Assembly (NCBI RefSeq): GCF_003044035.1
Contig: NZ_NVQC01000022.1
Location: 342,092 to 374,091, forward strand
From: Candidatus Methylomirabilis limnetica
GTDB lineage: Bacteria > Methylomirabilota > Methylomirabilia > Methylomirabilales > Methylomirabilaceae
DNA: 32,000 nt
Reading direction: 5' to 3'
Notes under the pieces: generated by a model
Databases searched by the model: none
Told to the model about the DNA's origin: nothing
What the model saw: only the letters and a program-made list of their open reading frames with translations
Part shown: positions 7,405 through 27,958 of the stretch, piece by piece
Position numbering within the stretch: position 1 is the stretch's first letter
Layout of the letters: every line of letters begins with the position of its first letter
Translations under genes and position numbers: made by a program

Positions 7405-9970
7405 ATATGTCCCGTTGAAACGCTCGCGGACGACGCACGCTGAGTTTCAGGCGACCGTCACCAATACTATTGAAATAGTCCAGTCGAAAATCGTACACGC
7501 CGGCGTTCAGATGTAGGGCGGCGTTCTTCTCTCGATACGTATGGCTTCCACCATTATCGAGCACGATCGCGCCATCGAGGTACAGAAGACTTCCGTCATC
7601 TGAACCAAGGTCGAATCGGTACATCCCGGACTCAACAATGCGCATCCGCCCTTCAAGGCGTAAGGAGAAAGGCGGATCCCAAGGATGCGCCGACAACCCG
7701 GGTGTCCGTATCCAATGGGCTTCAACCGATTCCCCTACCCGAATTTCCCGCCCTGCCTCTGTGTTCTCGCCGCTCCAGTTGACGGCGTGATAGTACCGGC
7801 TTCTCAGCCCCTCAGGAAAGAACCGGGCAATAGGAAGGGTCTCAAAGCAACTGCCCTGCGGGTTCTGAAGCGCCTCATCACCAACCGGATAGACATCCGC
7901 AAGCAGACGTCCCATACGTCCTTCATCTGCATACGAGAGGTGAAACCGGTGGCTACCCTTTTTTAACATCAGTGAGCATTGCATGAGCTGGAAAGGATGC
8001 GTGCCACTGTTGTCCAAGAGGGTATGACCGTCCAGCGTGAGTACGGCGCCATCGTATGAGCCGAGTAGAAAGTTGTACGCGCCTTGCCTCATGATGTGGA
8101 GGGTACCGGAAAGTTCCAAAGAAAACGGCCCCCTACCCCAAGGTCTCTTGGCCAGATATGCAGTTGCTTCCATCGGATCTTCAACCCAGAGAAGATCGAG
8201 CGGGACGCCTCGCCAAGAGAACGGTCTGTTGTGAATGATACCATCCGCGTGCCGTTCGTACTTACTCACGCCGGTCTCGAGGACAAAACCTGGAGAGGGC
8301 GAACCCTTTAAAAATCTATTCGCAATCTTGAGCCGCATAAATCTGGATTCTTTTGGGGACTCCAGCCGTATCGTGAATCGTTTGCGAATCTCAGCAAAGA
8401 TCCTGACCGATTCCAATTCGTAGATCGATTTGTCTGCTACACGCCGGTACATAGGGTGAAAATCCTGAAGGTAATAGACCGTGAATGCCTCTGGAGGCGT
8501 CGGACTGCCCGGATGAATGCTGTCCAGGAACGCTTCCAGCGTTGCCAACGGGCGAATTGGAAGGCATGAGTAGCGGCATTGGGTCGAACCAAACACAAAG
8601 ACGGAGTCCACAAAACGTTTGTGACCGAGGCTTAAGTACAGTCGCTCTAGCGCACCCGCGGGATCAGTGGTGTTCTCGGGGTAGGCAGAGAAGTTATAAA
8701 CAAGCAGCAGCTTTTCTCCCGCGTTGACTCTTGAGCGGGCCTCCAAATACCAATTTACTTCCGACGCGGGCACGAGATAGTCCGCCTGAGAATAGGTAAA
8801 GGGCATCGGGTAGCGCCGCTCATCAACGGGTAGCTTCATGTAATTGACGAGATCTGCCATCTGCCAGATATTACCCAAGCACAGCAACGCAATGAGTACG
8901 ACCTTCGGCCTCTCCCCAAATCGCGACATCCCGGCGGATTCGCAGAACATGCCGACGACCGCCACGATGCAATAGAACTCAACCAGCAGAAATCGTCTCG
9001 GACGCAGCCAATCGGCGCCTTGCATCCCCAGCACAACGACTAACCCGATCTGAAACATGAGGAGGCTCAGGAAGAACCACCGATTGCGTTTGAGAAAGAA
9101 GAGGCTAAATAGTCCCAGTACAAACAGGACCGGGCTGTCGAGTAACTGATCATAGAAAAGCGCTTTGGCAAGATTCGCAATACTTGCGCTGATCGCATCA
9201 ATCGTCACCGAACCGGAATGAACGACGGCTCCTACGTTCCCTCCCGGATATGAGAGGATCGTAGCAAGTTGAACCGTAGCGCCCAGAAGCCATATAATGC
9301 GTGTGCGAAGAGGGACATGTCGATGGAGGACAGCCGCCGCGATAAAGACTACAAACAATGATTTGCCGAGTTCGTACAGGTGCCATGACAGTTCGTTGGC
9401 AACCAGACACAGAACGAGGCTTAATATCCAGTTGCGGCGAACCCGATTGTCTAAGGTAATCCACAGCGCAAGTGCGTGAGGTAGTAAGCCCGTAACATAT
9501 GGATAGCCCGCAACAGAGAAGGAAAGCAGAGCCGGCGACGCGCCCCATGCGAGAAGCAGAATCCAGAATTGACGGATTGGAAGACCGATGAGCCGTATAA
9601 CGAGCCACAGTGTCAGGACGAAGAGGGCGAAGGTAAGCAGGTGCGCCCAATACTCCCATGGCCATAGCGACCCTAGGTAGCCAGGAATCAACGTGTAGAG
9701 AAGGCTGTTGGTGTGATTCCAATATTGGAAGTGCCGTGTGGAATGGACTACGGATATGACGGCGTCCCAAAACGATCGAGTAGATACCAGAAACAGCCCA
9801 TGGGCCGGGCCGAGCACATCCCAACCCGGATAGTAAGGGCCTCGGTACACCACACGCATCCACAACGAAAAGCTAATGCTGAATACGGCGAAGGAGGAGA
9901 AGGCGAGAAAGGCTGCGCGGCTTGAAAGCGGCGCGTTCTGCGGGTCACGTGCGTCATCCTTGTTCAGCAT
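7355..9970 (-). CDS. Large polytopic membrane protein (GT-C-like N-terminal ~560 aa) fused to two C-terminal PA14 domains
   Basis: 871 aa, with GGAG 8 nt upstream of ATG 9970 and 12 or more hydrophobic helices. PA14 signatures: GAYNFLLGSYDGAVLTLDGHTLLDNSGTH (about 7890-8221) and GMYRFDLGSDDGSLLYLDGAIVLDNGGSH...GVYDFRLDYFNSIGDGRLKL (about 7427-7810). Its 3' end overlaps the next GT2 gene by 50 nt. Confidence 0.8.
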   Translation of the reverse strand: MLNKDDARDPQNAPLSSRAAFLAFSSFAVFSISFSLWMRVVYRGPYYPGWDVLGPAHGLFLVSTRSFWDAVISVVHSTRHFQYWNHTNSLLYTLIPGYLGSLWPWEYWAHLLTFALFVLTLWLVIRLIGLPIRQFWILLLAWGASPALLSFSVAGYPYVTGLLPHALALWITLDNRVRRNWILSLVLCLVANELSWHLYELGKSLFVVFIAAAVLHRHVPLRTRIIWLLGATVQLATILSYPGGNVGAVVHSGSVTIDAISASIANLAKALFYDQLLDSPVLFVLGLFSLFFLKRNRWFFLSLLMFQIGLVVVLGMQGADWLRPRRFLLVEFYCIVAVVGMFCESAGMSRFGERPKVVLIALLCLGNIWQMADLVNYMKLPVDERRYPMPFTYSQADYLVPASEVNWYLEARSRVNAGEKLLLVYNFSAYPENTTDPAGALERLYLSLGHKRFVDSVFVFGSTQCRYSCLPIRPLATLEAFLDSIHPGSPTPPEAFTVYYLQDFHPMYRRVADKSIYELESVRIFAEIRKRFTIRLESPKESRFMRLKIANRFLKGSPSPGFVLETGVSKYERHADGIIHNRPFSWRGVPLDLLWVEDPMEATAYLAKRPWGRGPFSLELSGTLHIMRQGAYNFLLGSYDGAVLTLDGHTLLDNSGTHPFQLMQCSLMLKKGSHRFHLSYADEGRMGRLLADVYPVGDEALQNPQGSCFETLPIARFFPEGLRSRYYHAVNWSGENTEAGREIRVGESVEAHWIRTPGLSAHPWDPPFSLRLEGRMRIVESGMYRFDLGSDDGSLLYLDGAIVLDNGGSHTYREKNAALHLNAGVYDFRLDYFNSIGDGRLKLSVRRPRAFQRDIYGARGDSIKRSDSHVQ

Positions 9971-10073: not shown

Positions 10074-10823
10074 TCACCTCCTGGTCGCCTGGCGGCCCTT
10101 TATGCACACCTGCAACCACAGTAGAAACAGGCTGCCGAAGCGATAGAGGCCCTCGTGGAGAAGGTTGAACCGGCTCTTTCGCCGATCGTCGCACCAGACC
10201 GGCACCTCAACAATGACGGCGCCATCGCGTTGACCCCAAGCGATGAGTTGCAGGATATAGGCGCTCTGGTCGGCCAAATACGGGAGATATGGCCGTATGG
10301 AGTCGATCCGAAATGCCTTGGCGCCGATCGAGTAGTCCGTAAACTCGAGGTGAAGCAATCGGCGCGTGCAGGCGATGAATGCCGCGCTCGCCATGTGTCG
10401 GATCCGCGAGCGCTGCTGCCCCCCGGTCTGCTTGGAGCCGATGACGATGTCCGCCGTGTCGAGTGTTGCCGCTGCGGCCGTGATGAAGTCGAGATCGATG
10501 GTGAGGTCGAGATCGAGACACACCACCCGGTCATACTGCGCGCGCGTAATCCCGGCCTTGAATGCGCGGCCCACCCCGCGCTGCGGTAATTCAATCACTG
10601 TGAGGTCCGTACACCCCACCGCACATGCCCTGGCGATCTCGACGGTCCGGTCGGTCGAGCCATTGCTTATCAGGAGCAGTTCATACGCCGTAATCTCTCG
10701 GTCCTTCAGGCAGCGCCTGAGGCGGTCGACGTTGGCGGCAAGAATGGCTTCTTCGTTATACGCCGGGAGGATGAATGTCAGTGGAGCTCGGCGTTGGTGA
10801 GCATCACGCGAGTCTTGGGGCAT
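10074..10823 (-). CDS. GT2 glycosyltransferase
   Basis: LTFILPAYNEEAIL, LISNGSTDRT, and an LDLDLTIDLDF acidic motif. Starts 10 nt after the radical SAM stop, indicating operonic arrangement. Confidence 0.8.
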   Translation of the reverse strand: MPQDSRDAHQRRAPLTFILPAYNEEAILAANVDRLRRCLKDREITAYELLLISNGSTDRTVEIARACAVGCTDLTVIELPQRGVGRAFKAGITRAQYDRVVCLDLDLTIDLDFITAAAATLDTADIVIGSKQTGGQQRSRIRHMASAAFIACTRRLLHLEFTDYSIGAKAFRIDSIRPYLPYLADQSAYILQLIAWGQRDGAVIVEVPVWCDDRRKSRFNLLHEGLYRFGSLFLLWLQVCIKGRQATRR

Positions 10824-10832: not shown

Positions 10833-12191
10833 CTAGGAGAAGGCCGGTCGCACGTAGTCCCAGAACAGTGCGGCCTGTCGGCGCCAAAGGTGAAGGTCTA
10901 CCCGGCGAATCCTGGACCAGAGCACCGCCGGTCGCAGGTAGAACTCGCGGAAGGCCCGGTCGGCGACGGCCTGAAGGAGACGGGGATCGTGCTCCTTGCT
11001 CAGCACGTCGGGGAACAGTTCCGAGGCGCCGCTCATCTCGTACAGCGTCGTGCCCAGGTAGGGAGTCACGGCATGAAACGACGCATAGGTTGGGTTCAGT
11101 CGCTTGGCAAATGCGATTGTCGCCTCCATATCCTCGGCGGTCTCTCCCGGAAAGCCGAACATGAAGAAACAGACCTGATCGATTCCTGACTGCTTCGTCT
11201 CTGCAATTCCCCGTTCGATCTGCTCAAGAGTAATCCGCTTGTTAGTTTCGGCAAGAATTCTGGCTGAACCGCTTTCCACGCCGAAGTGGATGAGCCGACA
11301 GCCGGCCCGCTTCATCAATTGCAGAAGCGGCCCGTCCACATAATCGGCCCTGGTCTGGCACGCCCACTCGAAGGATAACTTCGCTGACGCCAGTCGTTCA
11401 CAGAGATCCCAGACGTCGTCGCGGACCGCAGTAAACTCGAGATCGATGAAGTAGCCTGTCTCGGCTCCTGCCTCTCGAACCAGATACGTCACCTCACGGA
11501 TAACCTGCTCAGGATCTTTCTTACGGTAGCCTTTGCCGTACATCTTGAGGAGGCAGAAAGAACATCGATAGTGACAACCGCGCGTCGCTTCAAGTAGGGC
11601 AAACCTGCCGCCGAGGACTTCGTAACGGTAGTTGCGGAGGTCGAGGAGATGAAAAGCGGGCAGTGGCAGGGTTGTCAGATCTATGGGGTTTCCTTCCGGG
11701 GTATTGATGAGCGTGCCCCCTTGCAGATAGCTAATACCCGGCACCTCGGAAGGATCTTTGCCATCACAGAGCGCTCGGACCGCCAGTTCAGGCTCACCAC
11801 GGATCACGGCCCGCGCCCGCGTCATGTTGAGAAGTTCGCCAGGCGCAACGGTCCCATGTGTCCCCATGACGTACAGCTTGTCGGGTTCTACCAGATGTGT
11901 AACGGCCAGGAATGGGCTGAGATCAAGGTTGGGGCATTGCCACCGATCAATCGGCGCTGAGGTGATAAACACCAGATCGTGCTGCGTCGCGGCGTCTCGA
12001 ATCGCATCGAGTGGGGTGGGCGTGGCGCGGGCATCGATGATGCTGGCGCTATGTCCATCCTGTTCCAGCAGTGCCGCGCAGTTCAGCAGGTCAAGGGGAG
12101 GCCATGTCCGATTGAACCGGCGTCCTTTTCGGCTTACCAGCCCGTCCCAGCTCGGATTGACCAGCAGGACTTTCAGTCGCCTTCCCGCCAT
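10833..12191 (-). CDS. B12-binding-domain radical SAM protein (class B rSAM)
   Basis: N-terminal LKVLLVNPSW... Rossmann-like cobalamin-binding region, followed by the CxxxCxxC cluster EATRGCHYRCSFC. Confidence 0.85.
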   Translation of the reverse strand: MAGRRLKVLLVNPSWDGLVSRKGRRFNRTWPPLDLLNCAALLEQDGHSASIIDARATPTPLDAIRDAATQHDLVFITSAPIDRWQCPNLDLSPFLAVTHLVEPDKLYVMGTHGTVAPGELLNMTRARAVIRGEPELAVRALCDGKDPSEVPGISYLQGGTLINTPEGNPIDLTTLPLPAFHLLDLRNYRYEVLGGRFALLEATRGCHYRCSFCLLKMYGKGYRKKDPEQVIREVTYLVREAGAETGYFIDLEFTAVRDDVWDLCERLASAKLSFEWACQTRADYVDGPLLQLMKRAGCRLIHFGVESGSARILAETNKRITLEQIERGIAETKQSGIDQVCFFMFGFPGETAEDMEATIAFAKRLNPTYASFHAVTPYLGTTLYEMSGASELFPDVLSKEHDPRLLQAVADRAFREFYLRPAVLWSRIRRVDLHLWRRQAALFWDYVRPAFS

Positions 12192-12297: not shown

Positions 12298-13593
12298 GGC
12301 AGTGTAAATAAATAAAGGTATCAACTTCGCTCTGTAGCTTTTGGTCTTATGACGTAGTTCCAGTCGCCATGAAACTTATTACGTTCCACATTGATGCGCT
12401 TCATCTCTTCATCGCTAACCTTGCGTCCGGTTGGATATTTCCGGCGATCCAATCTACACGTCACTTTCAGCCCCTTCGCCGTGGTCGTCCTGGCGATGAG
12501 ATTGACGATCGTTTCGTAATCCCGCAACGGTTCACCACGCCAATTTGACGTGATAAAGGAAAACAGCCGGTGTTCGATCTTGTTCCATTTGCTGGTGCCG
12601 GGAGGAAAATGACAGACGGAAAGGCACATGCCGGTTTGATCAGCAAACTTCTGCAACTCCAACTTCCAAAGCCGCAACCGCGACCCATTGCTCCCCCCGC
12701 CGTCGGCAGTGATCAGAAGCGTTGCCGTATCCGGATACAGCCGTCGTCCTTCAAAATGCCACCACCCGCGAATCGAGGCCACGGCAAATTCTCCAGTGTC
12801 ATGGTCGGTCCCCACATTGACAAAACCGGCGTTGCGTCCGAGGTCGTAAATACCATACGGATAGGCGCGTGGCACTTCTGGGCTGGGGAAGTCGTGACCT
12901 TGAACTTTTTTGGGCTGCTTTGCCGGAAGCCATTGCTGACCGGCATTGTTGTAGTTGCCGATGAGTTCCTTCTTTTTTGTGTCCACCGAAATCACAGGAA
13001 TGCCTTGCGCCAGGCGTCTCTTTACCGCAGCATTGATGTGCCGAAATTGCGCATCGCGGTCGGGGTGGTCTGTGCCCTCCTCGGTCTTCCGATTGCTCTG
13101 CAGACTATAGTTCAGATCGTGAAGAATCTGCGCGACCTTTGCATGGCTGACCGGGTGCTTGTTCCTGCCAAGCTGCCTGGCAATCGCCCGCGTGCTTTTA
13201 CAAATCCATCGCAGGGGGGACTGTGGATCGCCTCGCGTTTGGCCATCAATCATCTCTTCCAATGCATCCAACAGACGTGGGTCGGAAACGGTGATGGACT
13301 TGCGCCCTGCTCCGGGACAACGGATGCGACCTTCCGATGGCACTATCCCTTCTTGAATTTCGCGGACTCCTTTGGCGATGGCCCGTCGCGACAATCCACA
13401 CGCGCGATGCACCACAGAGATTCCACCAAAGCCCAAACTCACGGCTTCATTAGCAGCCATGATGCGGCGCGTGCGCTCGTCCAAAAGCGGCCACACAGAA
13501 CGAAACTTCCGTCTCAACTCGGGCAGGGTGTTCATGCTCAAGAAGCATACCACCACAACTCATAGATTGATACCTTTATTTATTTACACTGCC
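12298..13593 (-). mobile_element. Intact ISAzo13-family insertion sequence (1296 bp)
   Basis: Perfect 27-bp terminal inverted repeats GGCAGTGTAAATAAATAAAGGTATCAA (12298-12324) and the reverse complement (13567-13593). Flanked by the direct repeat TTA (12295-12297 and 13594-13596). Single full-length transposase ORF. Confidence 0.9.
12321..13556 (-). CDS. ISAzo13-family DDE transposase
   Basis: Characteristic blocks: DPQSPLRW, HPDRDAQFRHIN, PVISVDTKKKELIGNY, PYGIYD, ITADGGGSNGSRLRLWK, HFPPGTSKWNKIEHRLFS, NWRGEPL. The likely true start is ATG 13535 (MNTLPELRRKF). The stop codon lies inside the left IR. Confidence 0.9.
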   Translation of the reverse strand: MVVCFLSMNTLPELRRKFRSVWPLLDERTRRIMAANEAVSLGFGGISVVHRACGLSRRAIAKGVREIQEGIVPSEGRIRCPGAGRKSITVSDPRLLDALEEMIDGQTRGDPQSPLRWICKSTRAIARQLGRNKHPVSHAKVAQILHDLNYSLQSNRKTEEGTDHPDRDAQFRHINAAVKRRLAQGIPVISVDTKKKELIGNYNNAGQQWLPAKQPKKVQGHDFPSPEVPRAYPYGIYDLGRNAGFVNVGTDHDTGEFAVASIRGWWHFEGRRLYPDTATLLITADGGGSNGSRLRLWKLELQKFADQTGMCLSVCHFPPGTSKWNKIEHRLFSFITSNWRGEPLRDYETIVNLIARTTTAKGLKVTCRLDRRKYPTGRKVSDEEMKRINVERNKFHGDWNYVIRPKATERS

Positions 13594-15768
13594 TTAGGAG
13601 GGATTTTCTAAGGAACTGTATCTTTTCCTCGAAAGAAATACAAGCGTTTCAGCGAGGAGCAACGCGATTCCGGCCGCTGTGGCAACCCGTCCAACATAAT
13701 CAGGCCAGCGATTGCCGAAGACGAGCCGGACCTGCTTGGCCGTGGGATAGACCAGCATGAATGATGGTGACACCAGATAGATCCGATCGGCGCCCTCAAC
13801 GCGCCATTTCGGGTGATACGAGACCTTGATCAGGTGCGGGCGACCAGGGCACTCGGTCTCAAACCGAACCTCCTCATTGCCCAAGGCGTCTTTCACGTGG
13901 CATTCGGGCGAAAGGACCTGTTTAACGGGCTCCTCCATTAAGTCACGAAACGGCACGACTCCCGGCGGTACCGGATCGCCGGGTCGTGGGAAAAGGAGCG
14001 GTACCTCCAGCCATTCCGGTTTTTGGAACCAGTCATAAGCGAGTCGTTTCCAGTCGCCATCGGTCACGAGGGCAGGCTGGTATCGAAGCGGTACAACATA
14101 CTGGCCGTTGCCTTGACGGACCTGGAAGATCTTGTAGGGTCCGATTTCCCCCTCCTCGCGGTACCCAGGATTCGACCCCAGGGCAGCCTTCACCCTATCC
14201 GTGACGGCAATCACCTCTTTGACGTTGAACAGCTCCAAATGGGCGAGTGCCCGCTCCGGGTCGAATGGCGAACATTTGTAGGGAACGAAGGGACAAGAAG
14301 GAGTGTCCGTTAGTTCAGACTGGATGTAGAACACGAACGGGGAGGTCGGAGAGGACTGCATGTAGGCCCCTTCGAGCGTTGGGCGGCCCGATATAAGGGG
14401 GAGAGCCTCAAAAGCCCTGATCGTACCGGCCTTATCATGGAGAACCGAATGTTGGTACACGACTCTGGGACTGTGGGGGCCGCCTGGTAGCGCAATAGAA
14501 TTCACGACAATAAAGTATCGCCACCACGGTGTCTGCTCCATTCCGGAAAAATTCCACTGGATCCATTTGGGGATAAACGACACCTGAGGCATGACCCAGG
14601 CGATAGTCATCACGGCGATGACGACAGGCGCCGCTCGCCAGAGTGAACGCGGTAGCCGCATCAGAAGTCCACCGAGACCGGCTGCGGCCAAGAGGACGAG
14701 AAAAAACTGCGCAAAGGCCAGGAACCTGACATCTACAAGGTTCAGCCAGGGTGAAACAAAATACAGGGTGACCGATAGCACCACAGGGTAGGTCAGGTAG
14801 TAGATCATCCGAAGCCATCCCTTGTCGCTAAATTTCCCCCGCAGTGTCAAGGCTACTGTGACCGCCGCAATGACGATGATGGGCCATAGCACGACCGGAA
14901 CGATCTCCAGGATAGATGTAAACTCCCAGGTAATGGAGAACCCGGTAGTGTAAGGAAGGTACCAGACGAGCGGAATCAACCAGAATCCCAGCAGCAGCCC
15001 GCCCACAGCATACACCCGCACCAGGTACAGGAGCGTCATCCGGAACTCCGAGGTCACAGCAAGGAAGTACAGCCCCATACCCGCCGCCATCACCATCCCG
15101 TATCCGTGCGCTAATCCGGTAAGGGCGAAGAGTACGGCACACCAGCCTGCGTACCGCCGCTCAAGGACGCCTCGGTACAGTGCACCCATGAATAATACGA
15201 GGAGCGTAAGTGAGAGGCTGTGAGAAAACTCGCCGGCCAGCGTGCTCGGAATGTTTCCACCCCACATGCTGTTGCCTGCGTTCAGCAGGAATGGAAGGGT
15301 CAGAACGGCGCCAAGCGCAGGAATGGGGAACGGACATCCGATCCAGCGGAGCGCAACGAGGGAGGCGATCGGGAGCCCGAAGGTTCCGGCGATAGTCCCC
15401 AGCTTAAATGCAATAGGGAATGAGACGACAAGACTGAACCCGGCGATCAGCAGGAAGGCAAGGGGAAAATAGAAAAGGAAGAGGGGATAGCCGGCGAGGT
15501 TGCCCGGCATCCAGCCAATAAGCTTTCCATTAGGCAAGAGGTAATCCCGCAGATATCTTGCCGCGACATAGTGTGCGATGGTGTCGCCACCGCCAGTGAT
15601 AGTCGGCTTGAAAAGGAGGGAGGGTTTAAGGTACCAGAGAAGGAGTCCGTAGGTCAGCAGGAGGGCCAAGAGCGTGCTCACTCTCTCAACCCATCCGGGA
15701 TATCTTCCCGTTGGAACTGCGTCGGGTTCGGCGGAGGCTGTACGTACAGATTCGCGAACGTCCAGCAT
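13594..15768 (-). CDS. Very large polytopic membrane protein (candidate GT-C-like enzyme; resembles the PTPS-related/COG5617-type membrane family) with a ~300-aa C-terminal extracytoplasmic domain
   Basis: The ORF track starts at TTG 15786, which lies inside the upstream terminator. ATG 15768 is preceded by GGAGCGGTC. N-terminal motif GGDTIAHYVAARYLRDYLLPNGKLIGWMPGNLAGYPLFLFYFPLAF, then about 13 helices, a soluble domain and a final TM. The stop TAA coincides with the TTA duplicated by the IS. Confidence 0.7.
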   Translation of the reverse strand: MLDVRESVRTASAEPDAVPTGRYPGWVERVSTLLALLLTYGLLLWYLKPSLLFKPTITGGGDTIAHYVAARYLRDYLLPNGKLIGWMPGNLAGYPLFLFYFPLAFLLIAGFSLVVSFPIAFKLGTIAGTFGLPIASLVALRWIGCPFPIPALGAVLTLPFLLNAGNSMWGGNIPSTLAGEFSHSLSLTLLVLFMGALYRGVLERRYAGWCAVLFALTGLAHGYGMVMAAGMGLYFLAVTSEFRMTLLYLVRVYAVGGLLLGFWLIPLVWYLPYTTGFSITWEFTSILEIVPVVLWPIIVIAAVTVALTLRGKFSDKGWLRMIYYLTYPVVLSVTLYFVSPWLNLVDVRFLAFAQFFLVLLAAAGLGGLLMRLPRSLWRAAPVVIAVMTIAWVMPQVSFIPKWIQWNFSGMEQTPWWRYFIVVNSIALPGGPHSPRVVYQHSVLHDKAGTIRAFEALPLISGRPTLEGAYMQSSPTSPFVFYIQSELTDTPSCPFVPYKCSPFDPERALAHLELFNVKEVIAVTDRVKAALGSNPGYREEGEIGPYKIFQVRQGNGQYVVPLRYQPALVTDGDWKRLAYDWFQKPEWLEVPLLFPRPGDPVPPGVVPFRDLMEEPVKQVLSPECHVKDALGNEEVRFETECPGRPHLIKVSYHPKWRVEGADRIYLVSPSFMLVYPTAKQVRLVFGNRWPDYVGRVATAAGIALLLAETLVFLSRKRYSSLENPS

Positions 15769-15777: not shown

Positions 15778-15812
15778 AAAAAGCAAGAACGGGGCTTAAC
15801 GCCCCGTTCTTG
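15778..15812 (-). terminator. Rho-independent terminator after the IPTL-CTERM cargo gene
   Basis: 12-bp stem CAAGAACGGGGC/GCCCCGTTCTTG (15801-15812 / 15784-15795) with a 5-nt loop. On the minus strand it is followed by C plus T5 (15778-15782). Confidence 0.7.
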
Positions 15813-15846
15813 CGATTATCACGTAACCTGCGTATTCAGTTGTCGA

Positions 15847-16746
15847 TTACTGCAGGTGATTTCTTCGAGCTCTCACCATCCAAGCCATCGCACCCAGGAA
15901 CGCCGCTCCCAACACCATCATTCCCCAGTTACCGACCGTCGGGACCACCGGAATCGTCGTCGTGGTGGTCGTCGTGGTCGTCGTGGTCGTCGTGGTGGTG
16001 GTTACCGTAACGCTGGTGGTATCAGAATCGCCTGTGGCGTTATCAACAAGGCTGCCAGCTGCGACGTCGAAGCCCGCGCCGCCGCCGGATACGTTCAGCG
16101 TCCCTGCGGTGTTCGGGGTGATGAACGAATTCCCATTATAGACAAAGAGGATGCCCTGGTTCAGACTCAAGCTGATCCCGTCGACAGGCTGTGCGGCAGC
16201 ATCAGCAATCGAACACGTGGCGGTTCCCCCAAACCCATACACGCTGTCGCCACAATTCACGTTGTTCGTGATGCTGGCGACAGGGGCGAGCGCGCTGATC
16301 AGTGTCAGGCCGGCATCACCGAATCCAGCCACCGTGGTGGCGCCAGAGGCCCATGACCCGGCACCAGTGGCAGAGAAGGTCACGGCGGGCGTGCAGGCGG
16401 CCAGCGACAGGGTCCCGGTCCGCTTCCCCTGAGCCAGAGCGGTAAGAGGGGTCGCCGGTACCTTGGCAATCAGGGTAGTCCCGCTGCTGACGGTTTGAAC
16501 CACCGTCGCCGCAGAATTGAAGGCGATAGACATTGAGACGTTGGTCAGACGGTCATGATCGGTCCCAGCCGGCTGTGCATCCGAACAGAGGTACTGATAG
16601 ACGGTTCCATCGCTGGCAATGTCGATGCGCTGCTGCACCCGTGCATCGACACTCATCGGGGCGATAACCGTTCCCGCAAGGATCGCGGGGGCCAGCAGAG
16701 ACAGAGCCAACTTCTTGCTGAAAGCAACTCTTGCTCTAGAACTCAT
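15847..16746 (-). CDS. Secreted protein with Thr16 linker and IPTL-CTERM-like exosortase sorting signal
   Basis: AAGGAGGAG SD upstream of ATG 16746. Signal peptide MSSRARVAFSKKLALSLLAPAILAGTVIAPMSVDA. C-terminus ...TVTTTTTTTTTTTTTTTTIPVVPTVGNWGMMVLGAAFLGAMAWMVRARRNHLQ, i.e. motif, TM helix and basic cluster. Confidence 0.8.
   Translation of the reverse strand: MSSRARVAFSKKLALSLLAPAILAGTVIAPMSVDARVQQRIDIASDGTVYQYLCSDAQPAGTDHDRLTNVSMSIAFNSAATVVQTVSSGTTLIAKVPATPLTALAQGKRTGTLSLAACTPAVTFSATGAGSWASGATTVAGFGDAGLTLISALAPVASITNNVNCGDSVYGFGGTATCSIADAAAQPVDGISLSLNQGILFVYNGNSFITPNTAGTLNVSGGGAGFDVAAGSLVDNATGDSDTTSVTVTTTTTTTTTTTTTTTTIPVVPTVGNWGMMVLGAAFLGAMAWMVRARRNHLQ
15955..16002 (-). repeat. Homopolymeric Thr tract (16 consecutive ACG/ACC codons)
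   Basis: The plus strand reads cgtcgtcgtggtggtcgtcgtggtcgtcgtggtcgtcgtggtggtggt. In frame, immediately before the IPVVPTVGNWG sorting motif. Confidence 0.9.
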
Positions 16747-17030
16747 CCTTGCTCCTCCTTGCCCCCAACCTACAGGGCATAGCCTTCAACGTTGAGTACC
16801 ACTAAGACCACGAACCTAACATATAATCGAATGCATCATCAAGCGGCGCAGAAGCTGTACCGAAATTCTCCGATCTCTCGCCTCCCTTCGCCCCCAACAC
16901 ATGGAGTACTATTGCCGTGCAACGCAAGTAGATCAATCCTGGAGCCTAAACCCGCTGCCTTGATACCATGCCTCCTTTTCGCCTGTCAAGTTTTTTATTT
17001 CTCTGCGAAAGCTCTGGTATTCTGTCAGGG

Positions 17031-17197
17031 ATGAACTACCCCGCAGCAAGCTGCGAGGTATCGTCTTATGTTCTGGCCCGTCATTCCGTGCTTGACACGC
17101 CTGCCCCGTACTTGATACGGGGGAATCCAGTCGGGCCCTCTGGATACCGGCTTCCGCCGGTATGACGAACTCGCGGCAAGCCGCGGGGTATCAACCC
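17031..17197. mobile_element. MITE-like repeat (…ACCCCGCAGCAAGCTGCGAGG… family)
   Basis: Imperfect terminal inverted repeats (gaactaccccgcagc / gccgcggggtatcaa). An inverted, slightly longer copy lies at 24871-25067, with about 85% identity over the shared parts. Confidence 0.55.
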
Positions 17198-17370
17198 TCA
17201 ACGAAAATGAATAGCCAAGCCGACCGAGAAGCCTGCCGATACGGAGGGGATCCGAGTCTCACGGGAAACCGTGCGCCGACTCCTCCGGGCCGAGAGGCTC
17301 GCGTCCCCGAACACGCCCCGCGCGCCCTGACATTTTCATGGATAGACTTCGTAATCGCTCGATTCCTCCC

Positions 17371-18555: not shown

Positions 18556-19683
18556 ATGAAGATCTGCCTCGTCGGCCCCTTCCCCCCTTTACGAGGGGGG
18601 ATCGCCCATTATAACGCCCAGCTCGGGCTGGAGCTGATGACGCGTCACGAGATCGCGGTGATCTCCTTTTCGCGCCAGTATCCGGCCATACTGTTTCCTG
18701 GGCGAACGCAGTTCGACACGGGCTCCCCGCCTGTGGGGCTCACTAGTGAAGCGATCCTCGACTCAATTAATCCTCTGAGCTGGCTCCGTACCGGCCGCCG
18801 GATCGCTGAGATCGCTCCCGACTTGGTTATTGTTCACTGGTGGCACCCTTTCTTCGGCCTGTGCCTCGGGACGACAGTGAGCCTGGCCAGAAGGCGATCT
18901 CGCGCCAGCGTCATCTTCATCTGCCACAATGTTGTTCCGCACGAACCGTTTCCCTTGGCGAGCGGACTGACAAGGTTCGCGCTGGCCTCAGGCGATGCGT
19001 GGCTCGTCCACTCCGAGACCGACCGACAAGATCTGGAGTCGCTCAATCTGCGAGGCCACACACTTCTGGTCCCTCAACCTCCGGGGCAAGGGTTCGGAGC
19101 ACCGATCGACAAAGAGGAGGCGAAGAGTCGTCTCGGCCTTTCCGGAAATACCCTTCTCTTCTTCGGCCTGATCCGTAGCTACAAGGGGCTTCCAGGATTG
19201 CTCGAGGCGATGCCCCTCGTGCTCCAAAAGGTGAACTGTACCCTCCTCGTGGTCGGAGAGTTCTACGAGGGGAAGGACCGCTGCCTGAGCCTCATCAGCG
19301 ACTTGGGCCTCGCGTCGCACGTCCGGGTCATCGATCGCTTCGTTCCGGACAACGAGGTCAGCCTCTACTTTTCCGCAGCCGACCTGGTCGTGCTCCCCTA
19401 CGAATCGGCCACACAGAGCGCCATCGTCCCGATCGCCTTTGCCTTCGAGCGGCCCGTGGTGGCCACTCGCGTGGGCGGGCTGCCGGAGGCGGTCCGTGAC
19501 GGCGAAACCGGCCTTCTGGTAGAGCCGCGCAACCCAACCGCGTTGGCGGAGGCGATCATCCGCTTCTACGAGGAAGACATGGGGGGCATATTTCGCCGGC
19601 ATATCCTGAAGCAGCAGCGCTTTTCCTGGGGCGAACTGGCCGCCACGCTGGAGACTGCGGCGATCAGCCGTACTTCGCAGTGA
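18556..19683 (+). CDS. GT4 (group 1) glycosyltransferase
   Basis: MKICLVGPFPPLRGGIAHYN at the N-terminus. C-terminal GT-B block PYESATQSAIVPIAFAFERPVVATRVGGLPEAVRDGETGLLVEP. Confidence 0.85.
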   Translation: MKICLVGPFPPLRGGIAHYNAQLGLELMTRHEIAVISFSRQYPAILFPGRTQFDTGSPPVGLTSEAILDSINPLSWLRTGRRIAEIAPDLVIVHWWHPFFGLCLGTTVSLARRRSRASVIFICHNVVPHEPFPLASGLTRFALASGDAWLVHSETDRQDLESLNLRGHTLLVPQPPGQGFGAPIDKEEAKSRLGLSGNTLLFFGLIRSYKGLPGLLEAMPLVLQKVNCTLLVVGEFYEGKDRCLSLISDLGLASHVRVIDRFVPDNEVSLYFSAADLVVLPYESATQSAIVPIAFAFERPVVATRVGGLPEAVRDGETGLLVEPRNPTALAEAIIRFYEEDMGGIFRRHILKQQRFSWGELAATLETAAISRTSQ

Positions 19684-20375: not shown

Positions 20376-20786
20376 CTACGGCGTATAAACAGGAAGCCTG
20401 ACATGGCGGGCCAGCAGATCAAAGTGGTTATCACAGTGAAGAAGACTGCATGAGTAGTGTAAAGCAACAGCAGCGATGAGCTGATCCGTCGCCGGAATGG
20501 ACAAACCCTTACGTCGCAGGGTGTAAGTCATCCGATAGGCCGATCTCCAGACCGATTCCGTAATCGGACATTGCTGGAGCGCCTCCAGGTCTTCGCAGAG
20601 TTCGCGATACTCGCTCTCCGAGCGCGTGCCGCCGACAAGCTCCAGGACGACCATTTCGCACGTGGCCGCGCGCCCCTCACTGAGCAACGCGTGGACTTGT
20701 TGTCTGACAAGAGGATCGCCTGCCGGCCTCAACGCGTGGATCCAAGCCGAGGTATCGATCAGGACCCATCCATCAGCCATCGGCAC
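20376..20786 (-). CDS. vapC: PIN-domain toxin VapC
   Basis: VLIDTSAWIHAL, VVLELVGG, ATDQLIAAVAL and HCDNHFD supply the four acidic PIN positions. Overlaps the antitoxin by 14 nt. Confidence 0.85.
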   Translation of the reverse strand: MPMADGWVLIDTSAWIHALRPAGDPLVRQQVHALLSEGRAATCEMVVLELVGGTRSESEYRELCEDLEALQQCPITESVWRSAYRMTYTLRRKGLSIPATDQLIAAVALHYSCSLLHCDNHFDLLARHVRLPVYTP

Positions 20787-20976
20787 GAAGCCTGGTCAGC
20801 CCTTTTGGGGTGAGCTGAAGAGGGAAACATCCCAGCCTTCCAATCAGACGCTTGACCCGCTGCTGGCGAATAAGCGCCTCCAGAGAGCGATGGATGAGTT
20901 CCTTCTTCGTCTTGGCCTTGCTGAGCGCCTGGGCCTGCTTCATGAGCCTCTCATCAATCTCCAATGTGGTTCTCAT
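20773..20976 (-). CDS. vapB: VapB-type antitoxin (short DUF2191-like)
   Basis: MRTTLEIDERLMKQAQALSKAKTKKELIHRSLEALI... The internal ATG at 20976 has the SD AAAGGAGGA 6 nt upstream, whereas the ORF-track start at 21027 lies inside the promoter. Confidence 0.8.
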   Translation of the reverse strand: MRTTLEIDERLMKQAQALSKAKTKKELIHRSLEALIRQQRVKRLIGRLGCFPLQLTPKGLTRLRADG

Positions 20977-20992
20977 TGAGGGTCCTCCTTTA

Positions 20993-21082: not shown

Positions 21083-21424
21083 AGGGAACCTCAGCGCGCC
21101 CCTCTGATCGTGGATACGCGGAACACCTCAAAAGGGGCTCCCTTCCGATCACGTCGTAAAGGCGTAACGGGAGCGCAGACGACGGGTAATTTGTTCGCCC
21201 GAGCGATGTAGTTCCTTCCCGTACGTCGGCGCATCAGCCGATCCCTCACCCCTCTTCAGTCCAGCCTTCTTCTCACAACTCGTTGATACGACAGCGTCCG
21301 CGACTATCCCCAGTCGGACGACTAGCCCTCCGATATCCCTGGTACAGCACTTGCGTAGCCTTCCACCGACGCCCCTCAGCAGCGCCGACACCTCGTGGTG
21401 CCTCGGTGACACTTTTTTTCACCG
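21083..21424. repeat. Conserved non-coding module X, copy A
   Basis: About 85-90% nucleotide identity to 28360-28690 and, for its 3' two thirds, to 26812-27030. Stop codons occur in all three plus-strand frames. The minus-strand ORFs are not frame-conserved between copies. Confidence 0.7.
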
Positions 21425-21594: not shown

Positions 21595-21688
21595 TTCCTT
21601 TCCGATAAAGGTAAACCAGTCGTGAGGCTGGGACACAAAGTCGCGGGTCCCAAAAGGGTTGGGACAGCCGGGCTGCCGAAGAAAGGAA
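21595..21688 (+). promoter_or_regulatory. c-di-GMP-I (GEMM-I) riboswitch aptamer
   Basis: P1 is UUCCUUUC (21595-21602) paired with GAAAGGAA (21681-21688). Core: AAAGGUAAACC-AGUC-GUGA-GGCU-GGGACACAAAGUC...GUCCC-aaaaggguu-GGGAC-AGCCGGGCUGCCGAAG. This aligns motif for motif with the Vc2-type consensus GGCAAACC..GNRA..GGGACGCAAAGCC...AGCGGGGUUACCGA. Confidence 0.8.
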
Positions 21689-22239: not shown

Positions 22240-22480
22240 TGCAAGCCACTGAAAATCTCTGCAGGGTGGAATAATGGTGGGAGGGTGGCGGAAGACCAGG
22301 TGGGAGGCTTTCGAATCAATGATAAGATGCGGGGTTCAGGCGTTCATGCCTAACTTGTGGTGATCGAAGCTCCTGTGGGGTATACACTCAGGATGTCCAG
22401 GGACACGAGTCGGTCTGACAGGATCTGATCCACCTCAATCCGTCGCTCACGCGGGACTTAGTCGATCTCCCCACACCTCA

Positions 22481-22918
22481 CTATTCCCCTATCTCGTGGG
22501 GTAGGACCCGGAACCCTTCGCCTTGTGCGGCATCCCGCAGCCGGTGATCAAGACACACAAATTCGCGCCCCTCCGGACGACCCTGAACCCATACAAGCGC
22601 CGAGCCTCACTGAAGAGAGTCCACTGCATGGAGCGGATGAAGCAGGAGCGCCCGCATGGCCTGCTCCCGGACTGCCTGGCTCGGCGCGATCTCTGTCCAG
22701 TCGGCGGCAAGCGCCATGAGGATCGTGCGCGCCTGCGCTTCTGACCGTCTGGACAGGATGCCCTCGCGTCTGAGCCTGGCTAAGGCGGAGCAACACTCGA
22801 TCGGCGTGCCCCACCATGCGGCAATAGCACCATCCTCCTCGGTAAGCCGCATCAGTAAGGGGGTTTGGGGCTCTTCGAGACAGAGTGGGATGATGGCAGA
22901 GGTATCCCAGAACCTCAT
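22481..22918 (-). pseudogene. vapC: vapC (PIN toxin) interrupted by an in-frame TGA at codon 104
   Basis: The ORF stops at 22607-22609 after ...LLHPLHAVDSLQ. The same frame then continues for 41 codons, GSALVWVQGRPEGREFVCLDHRLRDAAQGEGFRVLPHEIGE, to TAG at 22481-22483. That segment is the normal PIN C-terminus and includes the last conserved Asp. Confidence 0.7.
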
Positions 22919-23217
22919 CGCCCCTCTGCCCGTTCTTCCAAGACCGCAGTGATCCCGGCGCCTTGAGGATCAGCGGGGCGCGGCATGTCCCGGAACCCGT
23001 CCGGCAGGTGGAGCGAGCCGATGCGAATGAGCCCGGCGCGGACCATCTCGATCAGGTGGGACGGCAGAAGAGAGTGGTCAGGAGAAAAAGGGATGAGTTT
23101 AGCGATCGGCTTGCCCCGCTCCGTCACAATAATCTCTTCCCCCGCCTTCACCTGGGCGAGGCATGCGCTGAGCGTCGCCTTGAGCTTCGAGACGGCTGTG
23201 CTTTTCGTAATGGACAT
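22915..23217 (-). CDS. Phd/YefM-type antitoxin
   Basis: MSITKSTAVSKLKATLSACLAQVKAGEEIIVTERGKPIAKLIP. Its stop overlaps the vapC start in ATGA (22915-22918). Confidence 0.8.
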   Translation of the reverse strand: MSITKSTAVSKLKATLSACLAQVKAGEEIIVTERGKPIAKLIPFSPDHSLLPSHLIEMVRAGLIRIGSLHLPDGFRDMPRPADPQGAGITAVLEERAEGR

Positions 23218-23239
23218 CCATAGTCACATGTATGCGACT

Positions 23240-23267
23240 GATATAGTCCAATCTTTGACAGAGTCAA
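23240..23267 (-). promoter_or_regulatory. Promoter of the phd-vapC(TGA) operon
   Basis: Minus strand reads TTGACT (23267-23262), 16 nt, then TATATC (23245-23240). A near-palindrome AGTCaCATgtATGcGACT lies between the -10 and the start codon. Confidence 0.5.
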
Positions 23268-23461
23268 GTCCTCCACTTCCCCTCCTGGTTTTTCCAGGTT
23301 TTCCGTGGGCACCCTGACCTTCCAGCATCCCCTCCCCCCACCGAGAGGGAGGGCGCGGGTGGGGGGGTCGTCATTGCCATGCACGATGTCAGCGGATGTC
23401 AAGCACACGCCCATACAGCCCAAGAGCAGCCAGAGGTAACGCTCCGAAACCCTCTGTCACT

Positions 23462-23727
23462 ATATCTCGATCGCACCCTTTTGACCCATGAGCTGGCTCA
23501 CTATTTCACGTTCCACTATGAGCCTGTCCTGCAAACCCTCATGGACCCTTCGACAAGCTCAGGGTGAACGGAATGGGCATTGAAAACATTGACCTTTTTC
23601 CGTTCGTGCTGAGCCTGTCGAAGCATGAACAGGGGTTTGCTGGACAGGCTCCTATCTGCCTGCTCCCCGATCCCAGTGGGAAGTCATCGCCGATAAGGTC
23701 GTCGATGCTGAAGAGTCTGCAAGTTGA
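23462..23727 (+). pseudogene. HExxH lipoprotein paralog 4: 3' fragment split by a MITE
   Basis: LDRTLLTHELAHYFTFHY is followed by a 132-bp insertion, then LPAPRSQWEVIADKVVDAEES. No 5' half, SD or start codon is present. Confidence 0.75.
23520..23651. mobile_element. MITE (132 bp) inserted in the lipoprotein gene fragment
   Basis: 19-bp TIRs with one mismatch: GAGCCTGTCCtGCAAACCC and GGGTTTGCtGGACAGGCTC. Flanking CTAT duplication at 23516-23519 and 23652-23655. Intact paralogs read ...CACTATCT... at this site, with a single CTAT. Confidence 0.75.
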
Positions 23728-23979
23728 GAACGAGAAAAGCTCGGACAAGTTCTTCTGAGATGTCTCGAGTGATCGTGGCGAGATGACGCTCCAGGTTTGT
23801 GCAAACAGCAAGTTATAAGTCTGATTTACACAACTTGGGCGTGGCATGGTACAGACTAAACAATGCGGGGCAGAGCCTGCTATTCCGGCGGGTGGCGTCT
23901 TGACTCACTCAACTCGTAGGATGATCACAAGTCCTTTATTACGGGGAGCACGACACCGGGCTATAATATCGCGACCGTT

Positions 23980-24399
23980 TTATTGATGAACGATCGTAAC
24001 ACCCGCCGCTTCCGCCGCCGTGATGAGACGGCGGTCCAGGGTTGCAAGGGCCAGACCCCTCCGCTCAGCCAGTTCCAGGTAAGCAGCATCATAGGCAGAC
24101 AAGGTGAACCCTTCCGCGAGGCGAGCGAAGCGCCATACCGCATCCGGGTTCAGGTGTACATCGGTCCGAATGGGGAGCATGCCGTAGAGTTCAGCTAAGC
24201 GCATAGCATCAGCCTCAGACAACCTATGTCGGCGTTGCGCAACAGTGACGGCGTTGGCGAGTTCATACCACCACAACGCGGGGACCCACAGAACAGTCTC
24301 CGGAGTAAGCTGGGCGAAGAATCGATCGGCCCGTCTTGACGTCTCATCAGGAAGCCCCCAGGCCAGCGCCATGGAACAGTCGAGTACCGAGTCCATCAA
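23980..24399 (-). CDS. vapC: PIN-domain toxin VapC
   Basis: VLDCSMALAW, WWYELANAV, SAYDAAYLELA, LATLDRRL. Confidence 0.85.
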   Translation of the reverse strand: MMDSVLDCSMALAWGLPDETSRRADRFFAQLTPETVLWVPALWWYELANAVTVAQRRHRLSEADAMRLAELYGMLPIRTDVHLNPDAVWRFARLAEGFTLSAYDAAYLELAERRGLALATLDRRLITAAEAAGVTIVHQ

Positions 24400-24650
24400 G
24401 CGCGGCGGCCCTCCTCGATCAACTCACGAACCTTCAGTACGCCAGGGACCCGCTGACGGATCTCACGGAAGGAGGTCAAGAGCTTGGGCAGATCCAGCAA
24501 CTCCTCCTCTCTCGTGGGAGGAACTAAATGTGCTACCACCTTCCCACGCCGTCGGATGACAAAAGATCTTCCGCGTTCCGTCTCGCGCAGCAACTCGGAA
24601 AGATGGGTTTTTGCCTGAAACGCGCTAACCTCAGTGACCTCACTCGCCAT
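24396..24650 (-). CDS. Phd/YefM-type antitoxin
   Basis: MASEVTEVSAFQAKTHLSELLRETERGRSFVIRRRGKVVAHLVP. ATG 24650 is preceded by GAGGAGG with a 6-nt gap. The ORF-track start at 24668 provides that SD, so it is probably not the start. ATGA overlap with vapC. Confidence 0.8.
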   Translation of the reverse strand: MASEVTEVSAFQAKTHLSELLRETERGRSFVIRRRGKVVAHLVPPTREEELLDLPKLLTSFREIRQRVPGVLKVRELIEEGRRA

Positions 24651-24672
24651 AGAGCACCTCCTCGCCATCTAT

Positions 24673-24708
24673 TTAAACTAGTTTAATCAACTAGTAGGAT
24701 AATCGCAA
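24673..24708 (-). promoter_or_regulatory. Promoter and operator of the phd-vapC operon
   Basis: Minus strand reads TTGCGA (24708-24703), 17 nt, then TAAACT (24685-24680). A perfect 14-bp palindrome TTAAACTAGTTTAA (24673-24686) covers the -10. Confidence 0.5.
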
Positions 24709-24775
24709 GCCTTTTATTTGGCTACACTGAACCACTGCAAAGCTGTGCCCCCTCATCCGCGTCCAAAGTGTCTTA

Positions 24776-25143
24776 GTAACTACTCAGGTAGATAGGCTGA
24801 AGGCTGAAGGCTTTTAGGGGTAAGTCATGCGTGATCATACAAAACTCCGAAAAGGTCTTGAATCTACTGGGGGTTCATTCCCCGCAGCGTGCCGCGAGTG
24901 CGTCATACCGGTGAAAGCCGGTATCCAGAGGGCCAGACTGGATTCCCCCGTATCAAGTACGGGGCATGCGTGTCAAGCACCTGTCTGCGTGCGGAGACGC
25001 ACAGGCAGGCGGAATGACGGGCCAGAACAGGAGACGATACCCAGCAGCTTGCTGCGGGGTAGTTCATTGGCTCGATTCGCGCCTTGCGAGATAATTTAGA
25101 ACCTTCAGTCTTCAGCCTTCAGTCTAAACACCTGAGTAGTTAC
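24776..25143. mobile_element. Composite MITE: outer element with 14-bp TIRs carrying a nested MITE (24871-25067)
   Basis: Outer TIRs GTAACTACTCAGGT (24776-24789) and ACCTGAGTAGTTAC (25130-25143), with subterminal (CTGAAGG)n repeats. The 8-bp flanks are GTGTCTTA (24768-24775) and GTGTCCTA (25144-25151). The inner element is the inverted homolog of 17031-17197. Confidence 0.65.
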
Positions 25144-25602: not shown

Positions 25603-25685
25603 AGGGCATCCCGGGAGCGTTTCGGGAAGTGGCGATCCGTCCGGCCAGCCTGCTCGCCTCCTCTTGAGTTGTGAGGCTTCACAAG

Positions 25686-27954: not shown

Positions 27955-27958
27955 CAGC

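Follow-up and report, generated by a model that had tools for sequence, protein, structure and literature searches.

Bacteria of the genus Methylomirabilis oxidise methane with nitrite, and their unique polygonal shape is attributed to rigid sheets of surface-layer (S-layer) protein. The gene considered here lies at 15847-16746, on the minus strand, of a 32,000-nucleotide (nt) stretch of DNA from Candidatus Methylomirabilis limnetica, which was analysed at its full length and is called the window throughout. Its translation, family, architecture and context mark it as the predicted gene for an S-layer protein precursor that is also a predicted cargo of exosortase H (XrtH). An earlier sequence-only reading had described the product as an exosortase cargo with a threonine linker; the S-layer identity is the main point that this reading lacked.

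The precursor and its expression signals

The cargo open reading frame (ORF) starts with ATG and specifies 299 amino acids (aa) and a stop codon, which amounts to about 30 kDa. The N-terminus, MSSRARVAFSKKLALSLLAPAILAGTVIAPMSVDA followed by RV, shows on inspection a basic n-region, an h-region and an AxA-type c-region, and a hydropathy scan places a hydrophobic segment at aa 12-35; this is the pattern of a Sec signal peptide, here assigned to aa 1-35 (16642-16746), with predicted cleavage after SVDA. The mature all-beta lattice domain follows, from aa 36 to about 245 (16012-16641), and leads into a stalk of 16 threonines, aa 249-264 (15955-16002), which is both a candidate O-glycosylation site and a length-variable spacer. 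Behind the stalk come the sorting motif IPVVPTVGNWG, aa 265-275 (15922-15954; signature [IV]PT[LV]xxWG), and a C-terminal transmembrane helix, MMVLGAAFLGAMAWMV, aa 276-291 (15874-15921), which is kept in all relatives. The basic cluster RARR, aa 292-295 (15862-15873), with an invariant R294, is a putative cytoplasmic stop-transfer signal, and the last four residues are NHLQ. All of these parts lie on the minus strand.

Most of this architecture had been recognised before. A script finds the 16 consecutive Thr codons at exactly 15955-16002, where they had been reported, and the signal peptide, IPVVPTVGNWG, the hydrophobic helix and RARR are all present at their earlier coordinates. The helix had been given 17 residues; it has 16, or 17 if G275 is counted. 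The mature domain, put at ~230 aa, had to be shortened to ~210 aa.

The composition of the protein is unusual in two respects. Glutamate is absent (0 of 299 residues), and the 13 Lys and Arg residues leave a long gap, with none between residue 110 and the RARR cluster. Trypsin would, from this sequence, leave one C-terminal peptide of ~180 aa, and the gap bears on why published mass spectrometry (MS) of a similar protein, discussed below, missed the tail.

The structure of the lattice domain was predicted with AlphaFold2 (AF2). A model built on a 27-sequence alignment (A7) is all-beta, with a predicted local distance difference test (pLDDT) score of 87.2 and a predicted template modelling (pTM) score of 0.86; an earlier model from eight sequences had been poor (pLDDT 50). 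Alignment A7 included remote homologues (E 1e-12 to 1e-4) taken from a search of representative sequences, and these are the N-termini or interior parts of large secreted proteins of other bacteria. No Pfam family covers the domain, and a Foldseek search of the model against the PDB gave no match at E<=0.001, with template modelling (TM) scores of at most 0.32. Alpha-hemolysin and Cnm were considered as fold relatives and rejected, at TM scores of 0.3 or less. The domain is best described as a confidently predicted fold that has no solved relative. A homologue of the same domain occurs in P0004 (416 aa; a seven-member cluster), which lacks stalk and sorting tail and continues into a HYR domain (PF02494) and then a different C-terminus.

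The signals that flank the gene are conserved as well. An alignment of seven upstream regions reveals a promoter at 16960-16989 (minus strand), composed of an A-tract, a -35 element TTGACA (16984-16989), a 17-nt spacer with an extended TG and a -10 element TATCAA (16960-16965); TTGACA and TGnTA are invariant in all seven. The promoter lies ~225 nt upstream of the ATG and leaves a 5' untranslated region of ~207 nt; this leader contains a conserved G-rich element and ends in the strong Shine-Dalgarno sequence GGAGG. On the other side of the gene, 34 nt after the stop codon, an intrinsic terminator (15783-15813, minus strand) combines a 13-bp stem containing 9 GC pairs with a 5-nt loop and a T-run, and an equivalent hairpin follows the cargo gene in each of the 15 loci examined. 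Together these elements are what one would expect of a gene that is transcribed alone and expressed very strongly, with limited read-through to its downstream neighbour. Just upstream of the promoter sits one copy of a set of intergenic repeats, 85-91% identical and in part inverted, which pair 17088-17200 with 24868-24980, and 21089-21368 with 28376-28653 and 26816-26993.

Sorting tail, exosortase H and probable S-layer identity

The C-terminal tail is of the IPTL-CTERM kind. The precursor has the order of parts expected of such proteins, namely signal peptide, VPTVGNWG (268-275), helix, RARR and four terminal residues, and VPTVxxWG is two conservative substitutions away from IPTLxxWG, which we take to be the consensus. 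Against the NCBIfam model TIGR04174 (IPTL_CTERM) the tail scores 25.5 bits, above the curated cutoff of 20.5, and the match covers positions 1-27 of 27 (aa 268-294). The same model recovers 21 of 28 related cargo tails at E<=0.01. In all 28 cargo proteins P269, W274 and G275 of the motif, and R294, are invariant; because these proteins belong to at least three unrelated domain families, such constancy points to selection by a shared recognition enzyme. Three of the 28 also match, weakly, the NCBIfam model named "midcut-by-XrtH protein" (E down to 4e-4). IPTL-CTERM signals have been described mainly in Betaproteobacteria; here one occurs in an NC10 bacterium.

A candidate for the recognition enzyme is encoded in the window, at 4973-5485 on the minus strand, 10.4 kb from the cargo stop codon. 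The 170-aa product scores 91.5 bits with TIGR04177 (cutoff 86), so that the sortase previously noticed some 10 kb away can be named as exosortase H specifically; every other exosortase or archaeosortase subtype model stays under its own cutoff for this ORF, the runners-up being ArtB (72 bits) and XrtX (65 bits). The protein carries C81 (in DDVCTG), R122 (in NLIRV) and H141 (in ETAH), has about five hydrophobic segments and is 84-90% identical across related clusters. XrtH is presumably the IPTL-CTERM-specific exosortase, as the TIGRFAMs/NCBIfam descriptions, in which the pairing is recorded, have it. Directly behind xrtH, and starting within its end, lies the gene for a membrane protein of 209 aa as called (4360-4989, minus strand), which belongs to no known family; it follows xrtH in every related contig and may be an obligate XrtH partner.

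Cargo gene and xrtH are also linked: they share one cluster in six assembled contigs (L001, L003, L004, L005, L036 and the ERZ4201064 contig that matches the window; loci and proteins are given by their L and P labels from here on). Their pairing is thus supported by hidden Markov models (HMMs) and by linkage, and it is likely that XrtH processes the cargo tail. Six-frame scans of the window for the motif, and for C-termini with a hydrophobic helix and a basic tail, gave no second such tail, which upholds the claim that the window holds a single cargo. A tail-only protein search returned nothing except short gene-call fragments and is no basis for counting cargo.

The cargo family is small. 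Among 5.8 billion proteins only seven full-length homologues came to light, all unnamed and 37-78% identical to the window protein, and a HMMER profile search of 1.84 billion representatives gave 15 matches below 1e-10, most of them fragments of this family, and just one family with this architecture. The only relative in the species-representative genome collection is encoded at L005, in a metagenome-assembled genome (MAG) of "Candidatus Methylomirabilis oxygeniifera", at 75% identity. Two clades, ~40% identical to each other, make up the family, and architecture and neighbours are common to both; the window protein sits in the clade with the VPTVGNWG motif and signal-peptide cleavage after residue 35.

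A protein of this description has been studied experimentally. In isolated S-layer sheets of M. lanthanidiphila, mela_00855 (VUZ84482.1) was the sole protein identified by liquid chromatography-tandem MS, a result confirmed by immunogold labelling (Gambelli et al. 2021; PMC8671808). It has 316 aa and a mass of 31.6 kDa, with a cleaved signal peptide at aa 1-34 and an IPTL-CTERM at aa 285-312, and lies outside the outer membrane of the diderm cell (PMC8671808). Its gene neighbours include glycosyltransferase (GT) and UDP-N-acetylglucosamine dehydrogenase genes, its transcript level is similar to that of PmoB, its single database match is CBE67388 of M. oxyfera at 40.88% identity, and the S-layer that it forms is extremely resistant to disassembly (PMC8671808). 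The supplement of that study names the M. oxyfera protein as a putative S-layer protein. The family, its S-layer role and the IPTL-CTERM annotation are, in short, already published.

The window protein resembles mela_00855 and CBE67388 in many ways. They share a genus-level taxon, a size of ~30 kDa, a signal peptide of ~34 aa, an IPTL-CTERM that ends four residues before the C-terminus, a very hydrophilic region in front of it, glycosyltransferase neighbours (GT4 and GT2 genes in the window) and the lack of other database homologues. The window protein also has a Methylomirabilis MAG relative, a UDP-sugar dehydrogenase gene neighbours the cargo gene in L001, and the split of the family into two clades at ~40% matches the 40.88% reported between mela_00855 and CBE67388. 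One difference is length: mela_00855 has 316 aa and the window protein 299, and the reading frame in the window allows at most 312 codons. M. lanthanidiphila was therefore rejected as the source of the window, and the cleavage position of the signal peptide likewise points to the clade to which mela_00855 does not belong. An N-domain profile search for further homologues brought nothing new and no 316-aa candidate for mela_00855. From architecture, context and taxon, with the match made to the published description of mela_00855, we hold with high confidence that the cargo is the Methylomirabilis S-layer protein.

Gene cluster, stalk and surroundings

Immediately downstream of the cargo gene, at 13594-15768 on the minus strand (likely start ATG 15768), lies a gene for a polytopic membrane protein that matches PF10131 (PTPS_related) with 121.7 bits. 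PF10131 belongs to the GT-C clan, CL0111 (PMC7801869), and its member in the window is the candidate O-glycosyltransferase of the stalk. The window proteins were compared by tblastn, and with the aid of gene calls, with 30 related loci. In all 18 fetched loci with enough flank a PF10131 protein of ~720 aa is encoded directly downstream of the cargo gene. These proteins are 69-83% identical across loci, the cargo proteins there 33-75%, which suggests much faster evolution of the S-layer subunit than of the enzyme encoded beside it. The adjacency holds even where the cargo is only 33% identical to that of the window, and also in L016 and L021, where the family HMM missed the tail gene, and in L028, where a contig end cuts it. 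The L016/L021 cargo is a remote homologue of the S-layer family (hhalign probability 96%, E 3e-9). A "GIFTARGNNK" family of ~300 aa (L016, L021, L023 and L024), with a like stalk and tail, is encoded upstream of the same GT-C gene. In 11 aligned PF10131 proteins D68 and D81, just past the first transmembrane helix, are invariant; GT-C enzymes have a catalytic acid just after this helix.

Another gene of interest lies beyond xrtH, at 3270-4277 on the plus strand (ORF 3135-4277). It encodes an ArnC/GtrB/PgfS-like GT2 with two C-terminal transmembrane helices (hydrophobic segments at aa 294-322 and 328-358), an arrangement typical of polyprenyl-phosphate-sugar synthases, for which the protein is a candidate. 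It matches NF007986 (ArnC) at 2.1e-60 with 204 bits, against an equivalog cutoff of 529, and PgfS at 2.9e-39 with 135 bits, against an equivalog cutoff of 500, which places the similarity at the level of the family only. Genes of this type are next to xrtH in L005, L036 and L037 too. Profile matches assign two further cluster genes on the minus strand to a GT2 (10074-10823) and a B12-binding radical S-adenosylmethionine (SAM) protein (10833-12191), and the corresponding genes directly follow the GT-C gene in L005-L007. A GT4 glycosyltransferase gene (18556-19683, plus strand) is divergent from the cargo gene and is kept upstream of it in L001, L007 and L036.

The cluster is compact in L005, where cargo, GT-C, B12-radical-SAM protein, GT2, XrtH and the 209-aa membrane protein are encoded in this order, with the ArnC/GtrB/PgfS-like GT2 on the opposite strand; there xrtH and the cargo gene are co-oriented and 4.7 kb apart. 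The corresponding genes of the window extend over 13 kb, the added length being due to a transposase and an extra block. The transposase, of the ISAzo13 family (577 bits; 12321-13556, minus strand), stands between the GT-C and B12-radical-SAM genes, which directly adjoin in L005, L006 and L007. The extra block (5786-9970, minus strand) is missing from the compact L005 cluster; it encodes a membrane protein of 871 aa, which has two PA14 domains and weakly matches DUF6056, as well as a GT2 (6646-7404) and a secreted product of 168 aa.

The stalk varies in length and composition within the precursor family. Its 16 codons in the window are 7 ACC and 9 ACG, and within them Tandem Repeats Finder detects a sub-repeat of period 9 (4.8 copies, 91% matches). 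The window's T16 corresponds to T18 in L005, T17 in L006, T17+S+T3 in L007 and T20 in L008; the P0002 allele has T11+S+T5, P0001 has T11, P0005 and P0006 have T9 and T7, and L013 has T22+S+T7. In L010-L012, L014, L015 and L026 the stalk is instead made of about 17-19 ST units. Despite these changes, all full-length relatives that bear the tail have a stalk of hydroxy amino acids in front of it, and so do unrelated cargo families, of the ice-binding-like and P0008 types; this recurrence is not due to chance. Since unrelated cargo share it, the stalk goes with the sorting signal, not with the lattice domain.

How fast does the stalk change? L010 and L011 come from different samples, and their gene DNA is identical except for one 6-nt ST unit, so that the repeat number changes on short timescales. 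Five contigs from four assemblies carry one and the same P0002 allele, and the window is 100% identical over 7.1 kb, T16 included, to NODE_66 of ERZ4201064 in the European Nucleotide Archive (a 130-kb contig at 383x coverage); the tract is thus not hypermutable. The earlier suggestion of a slippage or length-variation site is borne out to the extent that length differs between lineages and within one near-identical pair of alleles. Phase variation through the Thr tract was considered and rejected, because the tract is in-frame, has mixed codons and recurs unchanged in another, independent assembly of this strain, and because the P0002 allele is constant.

The ice-binding-like proteins (NF045625, E down to 1.5e-44) have Thr-rich repeat stalks and an IPA[AV]GNWG tail, and are carried by L017-L020, L025, L029, L032 and P0009. 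They are a putative second XrtH cargo family in those metagenomes, probably also in NC10 bacteria. L018 and L020 appear to differ from L019 mainly by one 21-aa stalk repeat unit.

Several other features of the window deserve mention. Two c-di-GMP-I-GGC riboswitch aptamers, both on the plus strand, lie at 21601-21681 (69.8 bits) and 28970-29050 (62.6 bits), above the gathering score of 59. The first precedes a small lipoprotein-like ORF (to 22239) and the second a CARDB-Fn3-beta-helix surface protein (to 31006); their leaders share ~85% identical DNA (~21.4-21.8 kb and 28.8-29.2 kb) and an identical spurious N-terminal translation. Homologous CARDB/beta-helix genes occur near the S-layer gene in L001. 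Between them, the region at ~22400-28400 has few long ORFs; it holds several PIN/VapC-like toxins with antitoxins of the Phd type, a pair resembling RelE/ParE, a MazF-like ORF and an HU-like gene. Outside it, at 20376-20990, is a VapBC pair. An rRNA operon was considered for the ORF-poor stretch at 22-29 kb and rejected, as the stretch is a toxin-antitoxin island. Near the other end of the window, at 1549-2718 on the minus strand, lies the gene for a protein of 389 aa in which collagen triple-helix repeats are recognised (Pfam Collagen, 45 bits).

A proposed pathway and its alternatives

How might such a protein reach the outside of a diderm cell and stay there? A pathway that leads from the S-layer precursor through Sec export and O-glycosylation of the stalk to cleavage and anchoring by XrtH is, taken as a whole, probable. 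The strong conserved promoter, the ~207-nt leader and the tight terminator would secure high expression of the single gene. Sec would export the precursor, and the C-terminal helix and RARR would hold it in the inner membrane with the stalk in the periplasm. There, as synteny and precedent suggest, the GT-C-clan enzyme encoded directly downstream may O-glycosylate the Thr stalk, the donor being a polyprenyl-phosphate sugar made by the ArnC/GtrB-like GT2 of the cluster. XrtH would then cut at or near VPTVGNWG, remove the helix and join the newly formed C-terminus to an acceptor that is probably a lipid or glycolipid. The lattice domain would end up outside the outer membrane, on a flexible stalk of variable length. 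Of these steps, glycosylation of the stalk, proposed from gene context and precedent, is given an even chance.

Precedents exist for separate parts of this pathway. The S-layer glycoprotein of Haloferax volcanii has, like the cargo, a C-terminal motif, a transmembrane helix and a basic tail; archaeosortase A (ArtA), a member of the exosortase family, cleaves this glycoprotein, which becomes lipid-anchored and carries an O-glycosylated threonine cluster beside the anchor (PMC4245038). One cargo relative weakly matches the NCBIfam model for ArtA-dependent S-layer glycoproteins. However, H. volcanii is an archaeal monoderm, whereas in the bacterial diderm considered here the protein must also cross, or attach at, the outer membrane; the PGF motif and ArtA are replaced by [IV]PT[LV]xxWG and XrtH, and the lattice domains are unrelated. 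PEP-CTERM/XrtA and other exosortase systems (Haft et al. 2012) have in common with the present one a three-part C-terminal signal, a small polytopic enzyme with Cys, Arg and His, and surroundings rich in glycosyltransferases, but their signature motif is another, and the enzyme here is the dedicated subtype XrtH, minimal at 170 aa. We know of no PEP-CTERM cargo that is an S-layer subunit.

As for the stalk, poly-Ser/Thr tracts outside the cytoplasm of streptococci are glycosylated, and thereby protected from proteolysis, by a GT-A enzyme that makes undecaprenyl-phosphate sugars (GtrB/PgfS) together with a GT-C transferase (PgtC2/PgfM1); among the proteins concerned, Cnm and WapA are cell-wall-anchored adhesins (PMC12041528). 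The streptococcal Pgf and GtrB/PgtC2 systems, which act on Cnm, WapA and PrsA, resemble the proposed pathway in combining a GT-A with a GT-C enzyme, and GT2 genes of the window match the PgfS model. They differ in their Gram-positive hosts, in a GT-C of the YfhO/PgfM type and not PF10131, and in the use of sortase A and not an exosortase; moreover, glycosylation in the present case is predicted. The anchoring of Cnm and WapA depends on a sortase and the LPXTG motif.

The points that weigh against the proposed pathway are best taken together with the alternatives that they favour. The first alternative accepts an S-layer protein that is an XrtH substrate, and regards the stalk as an unmodified hydrophilic spacer. 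GT-C, GT2, GT4 and the radical-SAM enzyme would build something else: an acceptor glycolipid, lipopolysaccharide (LPS) or polysaccharide for XrtH, or an unrelated envelope glycan. We consider this unlikely, although far from negligible. Exosortase systems typically sit inside polysaccharide-biosynthesis clusters, and several GT2 and GT4 genes of the window weakly match models of XrtA-, XrtG- or XrtP-associated glycosyltransferases. The target of these enzymes could be LPS, exopolysaccharide or the anchor acceptor in place of the protein; the window also has the PA14 membrane protein and extra GT2 that are missing from the L005 cluster. The PF10131 protein found no match among PDB sequences, by phmmer or by profile search, and its catalytic nature accordingly rests on clan membership. 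On mela_00855, N- and O-glycans were absent from the sequence covered by MS, and the authors write that preliminary staining of gels "seems to exclude" a glycosylated tail too (PMC8671808).

These negative glycan data are weakened by three observations in the same study: the MS spans all but the C-terminal tail, and so leaves the stalk uncovered, the authors state that modification of the tail could not be excluded, and the immunoblot band of mela_00855 runs at ~90 kDa instead of 31.6 kDa (PMC8671808). The absence of the tail from the MS data is what would be expected if the helix were removed and the stalk modified. Two features of the loci also speak against an unmodified spacer. It is the cargo gene, and not xrtH, that the GT-C gene accompanies, even where the cargo is as highly diverged as in L016 and L021, and a stalk of Ser and Thr only has persisted in all tail-bearing relatives in spite of very fast evolution.

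A second alternative is that the protein is a generic exosortase cargo, a minor component of the surface or matrix and not the S-layer subunit. The homology to mela_00855 and CBE67388 is judged from the published description of these proteins; in addition, ice-binding-like and P0008-type families carry a like stalk and tail, and the lattice domain is remotely related to parts of large proteins that other bacteria secrete. Yet a single family with this architecture emerged from the 1.84 billion representatives, the one homologue of mela_00855, at 41%, mirrors the two-clade structure of that family, and size, signal peptide, position of the tail and glycosyltransferase neighbours all agree with mela_00855. 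Promoter, leader and terminator, moreover, suit a very highly expressed gene. A generic cargo is, on these grounds, improbable.

Two further points concern the tail and its enzyme. With the Pfam model PF18203 the tail scores 20.2 bits, 0.6 bits short of the gathering cutoff of 20.8; the NCBIfam cutoff is passed, and the assignment stands. The tail had been called a variant IPTL-CTERM tail, a word too strong for two conservative substitutions. Studies of XrtH were sought in the searchable open-access papers and preprints and none was found, and we know of no experimental study of the enzyme. Such points lend something to the last alternative, in which the C-terminal helix is a permanent, uncleaved inner-membrane anchor and the likeness to IPTL-CTERM lacks functional meaning, the Pfam score being just under the cutoff; it is nevertheless highly improbable, as such an anchor cannot explain the location of mela_00855 outside the outer membrane, P269, W274 and G275 do not vary among the 28 cargo proteins although these represent three or more unrelated domain families, and xrtH is linked to the cargo gene.

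Four elements of this picture were met with neither in PMC8671808 nor in the further literature searched: the linkage of the S-layer gene with XrtH, the near-obligate pairing with a PF10131 GT-C, the rapid change of the stalk in length and composition, and the conserved promoter, leader and terminator. PMC8671808 itself draws no tie from the mela_00855 tail to exosortase H, to an adjacent GT-C gene or to variation of stalk length. In its most specific form, the proposal has XrtH cleave at VPTVGNWG and link the protein to a lipid or glycolipid of the outer membrane; the stalk would be the only glycosylated segment, modified by the dedicated PF10131 GT-C. All of this together is put forward tentatively, as a conjecture that may well fail in one part or another. 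If true, the NC10 S-layer would be the first of any bacterium with demonstrated exosortase anchoring, and the uncharacterised PF10131 GT-C family would receive a first function. The absence of the C-terminal peptide, the aberrant ~90 kDa band and the extreme resistance of the M. lanthanidiphila S-layer to disassembly would be accounted for as well.

For the rigid sheets to which the shape of Methylomirabilis cells is attributed, the locus offers candidate parts of an anchoring system: XrtH, its coupled membrane partner, the PF10131 GT-C, the ArnC/GtrB-like GT2 and a fast-changing Ser/Thr stalk. Exosortase H and the PF10131 family would each gain a first concrete substrate, and with it both would become testable.

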